Below are positions 1,631 through 17,740 of a stretch of DNA of 64,000 nucleotides, in pieces. Below the pieces are notes generated by a model, which was not told the origin of the DNA, did not search any database, and saw only the letters and a program-made list of their open reading frames with translations. The stretch is from a virus. Where the stretch lies: the IMG/VR virus record IMGVR_UViG_3300020442_000006, positions 123,494 to 187,493 of that record, one strand, 5' to 3'. Position numbers and translations under genes: made by a program. Positions within the stretch are counted from its first letter, which is position 1. Each line of letters opens with the position of its first letter.

Positions 1631-1834
1631 CCGTTCCTTTAGTCGTTTGCGTCCCACGGACATTCAGGAGTTGCCTCTTGAATGACTTGAACCAACTCGA
1701 TCTTCTCCCCAGGGGAGAGTTGTTCGTGCCCCTGTACGTTTTGGATAAACCTCAACGCATCGTGACACTGAATATCGGTGTACATTAACAGCAACAAGTG
1801 CATTAACATAGTTGTTCAAGCATAGGGATGAACG
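1631..1834 (-). ncRNA. Split second glutamine-II-like aptamer (5' half 1834-1825, 3' half 1655-1631)
   Basis: CGUUCAUCCC ... GGGACGCAA-ACGACUAAA-GGAACGG. The 3' half has the same 8+9+7 nt spacing as copy 1. Confidence 0.55.
1639..1809 (-). CDS. Small hypothetical protein (56 aa, ends PECPWDAND) nested in the second riboswitch-like copy
   Basis: Translated by hand: MLMHLLLLMYTDIQCHDALRFIQNVQGHEQLSPGEKIELVQVIQEATPECPWDAND. The start could be 1809 or 1803. Confidence 0.65.
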   Translation of the reverse strand: MLMHLLLLMYTDIQCHDALRFIQNVQGHEQLSPGEKIELVQVIQEATPECPWDAND

Positions 1835-1835
1835 C

Positions 1836-1878
1836 TCCGTTCCGCGACTTACTTGCGTCCTCCAAGGAGGATGAACGT
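1836..1878 (-). ncRNA. Glutamine-II (Downstream-peptide) riboswitch-like aptamer, copy 1
   Basis: Reads CGUUCA-UCCUC(CUUG)GAGGA-CGCAA-GUAAGUCGC-GGAACGG. P1 is CGUUC/GAACG and P2 is a hairpin. This matches my recollection of the Downstream-peptide motif layout, and it lies upstream of a DUF4278 gene. Confidence 0.7.
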
Positions 1879-1903
1879 ATGGATATGATAACATACCCTG
1901 TAT

Positions 1904-17528: not shown

Positions 17529-17552
17529 AAACCTGATTATGTAATGGTGTGT

Positions 17553-17740
17553 GGGAGGTAGGAATACATTATACCTACAAGTTATGGGAATCGCTAGTGC
17601 GAAAATTAGTACATAACAACAACAGTCATCCTGGTAAGGACTTCTCCGAAGAGCGGGCACCACCCCTGACCGTTTACATTACCCCGCCTAATTCCAACAG
17701 GGTTATTCAGTCACTCCCGTGTCGGTTGATCGGTCCGACT
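17553..17740 (-). ncRNA. Structured ncRNA or leader, manA-RNA-like
   Basis: Closing GGGAG/CUCCC stem, AACGGUCA/UGACUGUU, CUC(UUCG)GAG, UCGC(ACUA)GCGA and GUAGG/CCUAC helices. The GUGACUGAAUAA and GGUGGUGC blocks resemble the manA motif as I recall it. Confidence 0.6.

Follow-up and report, generated by a model that had tools for sequence, protein, structure and literature searches.

A probable composite glutamine riboswitch of a T4-like cyanophage with a predicted gene enclosed in its inner hairpin

The stretch of DNA analyzed here, referred to as the window, comprises 64,000 nucleotides (nt) and forms the last 64 kb of the 187,493-bp record of a T4-like cyanophage (IMG/VR record IMGVR_UViG_3300020442_000006). 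Its minus strand contains the leader of a short DUF4278 gene, and this leader is probably a composite glutamine riboswitch that consists of an outer three-way junction of the glutamine-I type, a circularly permuted inner core located in helix P3 of the outer one, and a gene in the hairpin of the inner core. Within the known families, this leader is closer to glutamine-I (glnA RNA), with the second core housed in P3, than to two adjacent glutamine-II aptamers. Comparative evidence strongly supports the predicted architecture, and we infer from the sequence a regulatory logic for it.

Architecture of the leader and covariation across the gene

The elements listed in an initial annotation of this DNA were all recovered on the minus strand between positions 1877 and 1631: two copies of CGUUCA, two of GGAACGG, and a 56-codon open reading frame (ORF) between them (Table 1). 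Part of the stretch is matched by 429 phage records, and the same layout was present in all seven isolates inspected, which belong to seven genera (ACG-2014b, S-SKS1, S-SSM4, S-SSM5, P-RSM1, P-TIM40 and ACG-2014d). In these isolates, an ORF of 53–60 codons begins directly after CGUUCAUCCC and ends in WDA(N/H)D-stop, which is spelled by GGGACGCA(A/C)ACGACU(A/G)A. When IMG/VR was scanned for the junction motif CGGAACGGNNCGTTCA, at least 110 genuine loci were recovered; counts out of 110, and those of their subsets, refer to the matches listed. The second GGAACG lies 170–225 nt downstream, across an ORF, in 76 of the 110 loci (69%), and 42–55 nt downstream, across an ordinary hairpin, in the other 34. 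With seven isolates of different genera and 76 genuine loci displaying it, the arrangement is far beyond chance. A scan of host genome contigs with the junction motif gave at least 120 chance matches, none of them aptamer-like, and is uninformative about the hosts.

In the fold that we propose, P1 of the outer core would pair the first CGUUC with the second GAACG, and would enclose the P2 hairpin, the junction CGCAAGUA, P3 (AGUCG with CGACU) and a second junction, AAAG, with a capping pair formed by C1855 and G1631. The inner core would lie within P3 in a circularly permuted form. Its P1 would be a local hairpin, GAACG-GAG-CGUUC (1842–1830), and its P2 would pair UCCC with GGGA, thereby closing around the complete 56-codon gene.

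The stem that spans the gene was analyzed in the 76 loci with CGUUCA as the anchor preceding its 5′ strand and CGCA as the one following its 3′ strand. Pairs 1–4 are canonical in 76 of 76 loci, with three to four pair types each, and pair 5 is canonical in 68. Pair 3 occurs as C:G, U:A and U.G, pair 4 as C:G, A:U, U:A and U.G, and the variants of the stem as a whole include UCCU:AGGA, UCUAU:AUAGA, CCCC:GGGG, UCCUC:GAGGA, UUCU:AGAA and GAUUAUGG:CCAUAAUC. Paired cells amount to 302 of 310, compared with a mean of 245 (standard deviation 6) after shuffling, and none of 5000 shuffles reached this value. In a MAFFT alignment of 55 distinct loci, all five pairs have changed on both sides and 97.1% of the cells are paired, versus 28–49% in slid registers. 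These comparisons support the view that the gene-spanning stem is under selection at the RNA level.

The initial annotation had proposed an alignment of orthologous loci as a check on P1, P2 and the cross-pairings between the two halves of the element. Covariation was detected in the gene-spanning stem, in the outer P2 hairpin, and in the pairings AGUCG:CGACU and CUAAAG:CUUUAG. The strands of P1, on the other hand, are invariant, both in the 55 loci and in a separate alignment of 23 unsplit relatives that lack the ORF.

Table 1. Predicted features of the leader and the adjoining unit, in the order of transcription.
Feature	Position	Strand	Remarks
Promoter-like site TTGCTA-17 nt-TG-TATCAT	1913-1885	minus	consensus scan only
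Outer P1, 5′ strand, CGUUC(1)	1877-1873	minus	followed by A1872; invariant in 55/55 and 23/23 aligned loci
Outer P2 hairpin UCCUC-CUUG-GAGGA	1871-1858	minus	covaries across loci
First junction CGCAAGUA	1857-1850	minus	C1855, capping ("linchpin") base; AAGUA, half of the glutamine-I E-loop
P3, 5′ strand, AGUCG	1849-1845	minus	covaries with 1645-1641; followed by C1844
GGAACGG(1), one strand of inner P1 hairpin	1843-1837	minus	pairs with CGUUC(2) over a 3-nt loop, G-A-G
CGUUC(2), other strand of inner P1 hairpin	1834-1830	minus	preceded by AG, followed by A1829
Inner P2, 5′ strand, UCCC	1828-1825	minus	partner of 1655-1652 across the gene
Micro-ORF MLEQLC	1823-1803	minus	out of frame; ends UAAUG at second in-frame AUG of the nested gene
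Nested gene	1809-1639	minus	56 codons; phrog_504
Inner P2, 3′ strand, GGGA	1655-1652	minus	within Trp-Asp codons
Inner junction CGCAAA	1651-1646	minus	C1649 can cap with G1837
P3, 3′ strand, CGACU	1645-1641	minus	stop UAA (1641-1639) starts at its last base
Second junction AAAG, outer P1 3′ strand GAACG, capping base	1640-1631	minus	AAAG 1640-1637; GAACG 1636-1632; G1631
CUUUAG and Shine-Dalgarno site of the DUF4278 gene	1612-1604	minus	CUUUAG 1612-1607, partner of CUAAAG 1642-1637; overlaps AGGAG 1608-1604
Regulated DUF4278 gene	1596-1453	minus	phrog_5049; 47 codons; short IF17-like protein with YRG repeats
Terminator-like hairpin and U-run	about 1429-1400	minus	ends the unit

Wiring of the two cores

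P3 corresponds to a cross-pairing that the initial annotation had noticed between the loops of its two copies, and it proved to be conserved and to covary across sequence types. Complementarity is present in every locus, with variants such as AGUCA:UGACU (three loci), GGACGG:CCGCCC, GCUAACG:CGUUGAGC and CGACU:AGUUG. In the window, P3 encloses about 200 nt in place of a short loop. A different cross-pairing from the same annotation, UAAGUC:GACUUA, occurs in only 6 of the 110 loci and looks fortuitous.

The third base of CG(C/G)AA is known from solved glutamine riboswitch structures to form a long-range capping pair, its partner being the base that follows GAACG (PMC6698751). The outer capping pair of the nested fold, C1855:G1631 in the window, is C:G in 85 and G:C in 25 of the 110 loci, with no mismatch. 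If the wiring were tandem, the capping positions would hold G.G in 25 of these loci and C.C in 24, and the tandem capping columns are mismatched in 10 of 23 rows each in the unsplit alignment. The two halves of the E-loop are split in a corresponding manner, with AAGUA located in the first linker and GAAG adjoining the second GAACG, and the nested wiring is favored because these halves sit in different copies. RNAalifold, applied without guidance to the 23 ORF-less relatives, returned the outer P1, both hairpins and the inner P1 hairpin, which is the nested fold. The inner P1 hairpin appears as a pairing of columns 45–49 with columns 53–57, the strands of which are invariant and lie outside the reach of covariation.

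The initial annotation had interpreted the element as a tandem of glutamine-II aptamers, the second of which held the gene in its P2 loop. Duplicated glutamine-type halves do precede a DUF4278 gene, but their side-by-side wiring is not supported, as the capping pair links the two copies in 110 of 110 loci. In a plain tandem, CGUUC(1) would pair with GGAACG(1), and CGUUC(2) with GGAACG(2) across the gene, each unit forming a glutamine-II-like pseudoknot; AGUCG:CGACU would then represent the P2 of the first aptamer or a contact between aptamers, and CUAAAG:CUUUAG the P2 of the second. Such a structure has points in its favor. The first element alone is scored by the models of both families in Rfam, RF01704 (30.1 bits) and RF01739 (28.3 bits), and the contiguous second element of unsplit relatives reaches 40.3 bits. 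The first pairing would also be kinetically favored, since GGAACG(1) is transcribed about 200 nt before GGAACG(2). A further point is that, in the canonical glutamine-II aptamer, the GGAACGG is surrounded by a P2 helix (PMC6698751); a conserved local P2 around GGAACGG(1) was not found here. In addition to the G.G and C.C oppositions at the capping positions, the tandem would place the conserved E-loop halves AAGUA and GAAG in different aptamers, and it requires two interleaved pseudoknots, whereas the nested fold requires none. For the window, the minimum free energy is −81.7 kcal/mol, and the constrained energies are −76.0 kcal/mol for the nested fold (a cost of 5.7) and −73.6 kcal/mol for the tandem (a cost of 8.1), the pseudoknot helix being uncounted in this last value. 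We consider the plain tandem unlikely. Tandem pairing may nevertheless occur in a conformer in exchange with the nested fold, either early during transcription or in the absence of ligand, and such an alternative state is plausible because Rfam often favors the contiguous second element alone in unsplit relatives.

At the Rfam gathering cut-offs, manA RNA is the only family in the whole window, which gives no glutamine match at this level. The manA RNA (RF01745) is of full length and lies at 17548–17740 on the minus strand (123 bits versus a cut-off of 55.2). The search with RF01704 that the initial annotation had put forward detected the first copy below the cut-off of 33 bits (E 1.7e-5 on 601 nt) and gave no match to the split second copy, and no Rfam model matched the split part of the element even at relaxed thresholds. 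The glutamine match to the first element is the sole one in the whole 187-kb phage record. Natural ORF-less relatives were used as the Rfam comparison for the split element of the window. In one of these, L064, the RF01739 model fits the outer wiring by allowing P3 an insert of 52 nt, and the score of 37.6 bits exceeds the cut-off of 35.

The composite reading has to be weighed against several of these results and some further ones. In the window, RF01704 and RF01739 both remain below their cut-offs, with local matches to the first element only; moreover, the contiguous "second copy" of the unsplit relative L027 is the one that scores 40.3 bits by itself, an alignment of a kind that Rfam often favors. 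Because CGUUC and GAACG are invariant, the P1 partners were chosen on the basis of a single covarying capping pair, the split E-loop and parsimony. The inner capping pair, G1837:C1649, is likewise invariant (G:C in 23 of 23 rows), and a scan with CGGAACGC for a variant of it produced 120 chance matches and no genuine locus. The single-sequence fold of 1881–1590 is not unusually stable (z = −1.5). Finally, the gene-spanning stem of the window itself has only four pairs, with the start codon of the nested gene 15 nt outside the stem. The composite fold, with its covarying outer capping pair, P3 and gene-spanning stem, is in our judgment still the probable one.

The enclosed genes

The 56-codon ORF of the initial annotation is present inside the element, and the 3′ half supplies the codons with which it ends, W-D-A-N-D-stop, as had been described. 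It matches phrog_504 (E 5.8e-17). An intact in-frame ORF of 49–66 codons occurs in 70 of the 76 loci in spite of a nucleotide identity of about 50%; insertions and deletions are multiples of three, and two Cys are invariant in 70 of 70 nested proteins. The entropy of the interior by codon position (1.44/0.96/1.64) displays a coding pattern. In the last five codons, the entropy of the third position falls to 0.60, compared with 1.64 in the interior, so that synonymous change is suppressed there only, as expected if RNA elements overlap the coding sequence in this region. The predicted structure of the protein consists of three helices, with a predicted local distance difference test (pLDDT) value of 81.6. 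The protein belongs to no Pfam family, its predicted fold has no PDB match at E ≤ 0.001, and its Atlas neighbors (0.86–0.87) are only viral hypothetical clusters, none of them informative. By computation, the enclosed ORF is shown to be a predicted protein-coding gene. An untranslated ORF, acting as a long variable RNA loop or as an extra RNA domain of the switch, would be in agreement with the lack of a Pfam family or fold match; the codon-position pattern, the invariant Cys, the size of the indels, the frame kept intact across the loci, and the PHROG match together with a confident three-helix model make it very improbable.

The end of GGAACGG(1) and the following A1836–G1835 spell GGAG, and in most relatives this is likely the Shine-Dalgarno site of the nested gene. 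The nested AUG lies in the stem in most relatives, and outside it, at 1809, in the clade of the window. A frameshift of the nested gene in the window was considered and rejected: the clade formed by L127, L128 and L132 shares the MLMH start, with a variable spacer of 2–14 nt after the stem. The micro-ORF with an ATG at 1823 that had been pointed out in the initial annotation is present in the window, whereas none of the nearest relatives (L127, L128 and L132) has this start codon. It starts 11 nt after GGAG and is created by a 2-nt difference with respect to L127. The micro-ORF is probably fortuitous; it would be either chance or a reinitiation device specific to the window.

A second site for an ORF is the outer hairpin: in 24 of the 110 loci, CGUUCAUCC(A)AUG opens a frame of 66–80 codons there. 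These ORFs belong to phrog_6471 (E 3e-32) or are signal-peptide-like, and they terminate either within the stem's 3′ strand or within AAGUAA. The stems around them covary as well. In a BLASTP comparison, nested proteins of the phrog_504 kind showed no similarity to those of phrog_6471. The AUG of the outer-hairpin gene lies 9–11 nt from the probable 5′ end of the RNA, without a Shine-Dalgarno site, which suggests a nearly leaderless initiation. In L012, L020, L024, L031, L037, L044, L053, L059 and others, the outer-hairpin gene is found 220–250 nt upstream of the junction motif.

All four combinations occur: 27 loci have no ORF in either hairpin, 56 have an ORF in the inner hairpin only, which is the state of the window, 7 in the outer hairpin only, and 17 in both. 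Metagenome contigs (runs X1 and X15–X17, from DNA and RNA libraries) display 3–9 nt in place of the 168-nt gene, at 1655–1824. Splicing was ruled out as the source of the contigs that skip this segment, as the same joints appear in DNA runs and correspond to ORF-less variants of other phages. Because these contigs join the conserved halves by 3–9 nt, the ORF-less and ORF-bearing forms coexist in the same marine samples.

The occurrence of the four combinations implies that ORFs have been gained or lost in these loops, and together with the coexistence of both forms it would be compatible with a relic, in which a small gene disabled an older double aptamer whose halves persist as code for WDAND, the stop and translation signals. 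It is hard to reconcile such decay with the compensatory double changes that maintain the stem across the gene, with synonymous sites frozen only where RNA elements overlap, or with P3 and the capping pair, both of which span the gene and still covary. We therefore regard a relic as highly improbable.

Expression platform, genomic setting and relation to known systems

The remaining cross-pairing proposed in the initial annotation, between CUAAAG (1642–1637) and CUUUAG, is conserved, covaries and overlaps the Shine-Dalgarno site of the DUF4278 gene. At its variable position, the helix has A:U in 23, G:C in 27, G:U in 14 and A:C in 0 cases, and it is part of the minimum-free-energy fold of the window. 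This masking helix competes with the outer core because it uses bases that also belong to P3, to the AAAG junction and to GGAACG, from which it takes the first G. The junction is AAAG in the window and GAAG in 79 of the 110 loci, and the UAA stop of the nested gene results from this replacement. The expression platform is not uniform, which counts against the proposed reading: in a subgroup characterized by CGGAAGUA and GGAACGC, the masking helix, or the sequence UCUUUAAC after GGAACGC, misses the Shine-Dalgarno site located about 20 nt beyond it. The subgroup comprises L016, L025, L033, L038, L054, L065, L079, L081 and L087, as well as class B loci such as L013 and L021.

We predict that this leader RNA senses glutamine. 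At low glutamine, the local CUAAAG:CUUUAG helix would form and mask the ribosome site of DUF4278, which would be off. At high glutamine, the cores would fold and capture CGACU, AAAG and GAACG, the masking helix would melt, and DUF4278 would be translated, as in an ON switch. Glutamine riboswitches of both types are ON switches that melt a helix sequestering the ribosome-binding site (RBS), before gifB and in a Prochlorococcus DUF4278 leader (PMC6212724). The proposal matches this published model because in both an anti-RBS helix melts on glutamine binding.

In most relatives, both GGAG and AUG of the nested gene would be buried as well once the cores have folded. To terminate at UAA 1641–1639, a ribosome would have to open the inner P2, P3, the outer P1 and the masking helix; for this reason, sensing and translation of the inner gene would be mutually exclusive on one molecule. 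Termination on the nested gene could, in turn, transiently expose the DUF4278 site. As a tentative extension, which we consider possible but rather doubtful, the leader would be a translation-gated riboswitch in which ribosome traffic unfolds both cores and the masking helix, glutamine and translational capacity together set the ratio of the two proteins, and the hairpin loops serve as insertion slots where genes are gained or lost while the sensor is kept. Metatranscriptome contigs from two studies cover 1572–1737 exactly and 1659–1855 with two differences, a weak indication of expression since carry-over of DNA is possible. This evidence consists of contigs only, which carry no information on RNA ends, strand or level, and the parts left uncovered are uninformative.

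The element lies between a 2-oxoglutarate (2OG)-Fe(II) oxygenase gene (2582–1953) and talC (1361–693), with nrdB and nrdA close by. The labels of the former gene, on the minus strand, conflict: it has a weak Pfam match to 2OG-Fe(II) oxygenase, yet it belongs to phrog_274, which is labeled "DNA endonuclease V" in PHROGs. The stretch looks like a self-contained unit of about 480 nt that consists of the promoter-like site, the leader, the DUF4278 gene and the terminator-like hairpin. In relatives, TATAAT is found 8–10 nt 5′ of the first CGUUCA. The RNA's 5′ end is probably at the first CGUUC or no more than a few nt from it, because the −10 box ends 7 nt before this motif. In L002, L010, L047 and many other loci, the −10 box is located within a short palindrome (GGUCUAUAAUAGACC and variants), just 5′ of the first CGUUCA, which might form a hairpin or serve as a site for a protein at the promoter.

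The product of the regulated gene matches phrog_5049 at E 5e-22 and just misses the gathering cut-off of DUF4278 (PF14105) in Pfam, with 24.7 bits (E 3.1e-5) versus 25.3. Many relatives (e.g., L007:655-822 and L012:8288-8449) carry as regulated gene a variant of 54–55 codons, MNTL..AYRGV..YRG..Y (phrog_545), a DUF4278-like form that is extended at its N-terminus. The YRG protein served by the switch would, therefore, occur in two forms.

Search models for riboswitches presuppose an aptamer that is compact, contiguous and non-coding, which is how these domains are regarded. Here, a sensor of a known class appears to stay under selection even though one of its stems spans a coding gene and a second, permuted core is housed in another stem. 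The result is an annotation gap: Rfam sees at most a weak single or "tandem" match, although the layout is widespread among phage records, isolates and metagenomic loci. If correct, the proposed mechanism would be a natural case of ligand sensing that competes with the translation of an internal gene on the same RNA. It bears on how cyanophages may read the nitrogen status of their hosts, the main primary producers of the ocean, via a phage IF17-like protein. Searches for split or permuted aptamers may reveal more hidden riboswitches.

In the papers covered (PMC2864571, PMC6212724, PMC6698751, PMC9004378, PMC9964418, PMC12379486), cyanophage glutamine riboswitches are reported only as Rfam-type matches. 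No nested, permuted or gene-bearing form was found in the literature on glutamine riboswitches that was covered, which did not extend to Ames and Breaker 2011 (RNA Biol 8:82).

With glutamine-I (glnA RNA, RF01739), the leader shares the core CGUUCA, hairpin, CG(G/C)AAGUA, P3, GAAG and GAACG(C/G), and, in the predicted fold, the three-way junction with its long-range capping pair. The P2 hairpins between CGUUCA and CG(G/C)AA covary, and the E-loop motifs, P3 and the capping pair of that family are all found here. The position in the leader of a DUF4278 (IF17-like) gene is also shared (e.g., the Synechocystis gifB leader, PMC6212724; motif, PMC2864571), as is an anti-Shine-Dalgarno helix that competes with the folded aptamer, an ON switch in the published case. 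By contrast, P3 would hold a permuted second core here, with its P1 capped by a 3-nt loop and its P3 open, instead of a small hairpin. A complete gene of 49–80 codons is enclosed by one of the hairpins, and in some relatives by each of the two, and the window differs further by AAAG in place of GAAG and by a score that does not reach the RF01739 cut-off.

Glutamine-II (Downstream-peptide motif, RF01704, PMC6698751) has in common with the leader the nucleotides of the ligand pocket (CGUUC, CGCA and GGAACGG), the marine picocyanobacterial settings, and the location upstream of short DUF4278 ORFs. Its structure, in which the capping pair and the P1 loop were described, tolerates any loop in the stem-loop beside CGUUCA, and the aptamer assembles from two strands even when cut into two RNAs (PMC6698751). 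However, the covariation of the capping pair observed here is unfit for two side-by-side units, and the E-loop AAGUA/GAAG is a glutamine-I feature.

Tandem riboswitches, such as the glycine riboswitch, likewise contain two sensor cores for the same ligand in one leader, which could sharpen the response. In the leader described here, the cores would be nested, with one helix in common, instead of following one another. Elements of this kind are classified as plain tandems in published work, and tandem glnA RNAs have been noted (PMC2864571).

Two further systems are comparable in their topology. Group I introns with ORFs for homing endonucleases, including phage introns (PMC3984707), are functional RNAs that tolerate an ORF in a hairpin loop with long-range pairing around it. 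They combine a self-splicing ribozyme with a mobility gene, whereas the leader would combine a predicted ligand sensor with a small protein encoded in the same mRNA. In eukaryotic thiamine pyrophosphate (TPP) riboswitches with long insertions (PMC3597705), helices of the aptamer or the expression platform are closed over long distances, as in the gene-spanning stem; those insertions are non-coding and act through splicing, in contrast to the predicted gene enclosed here.

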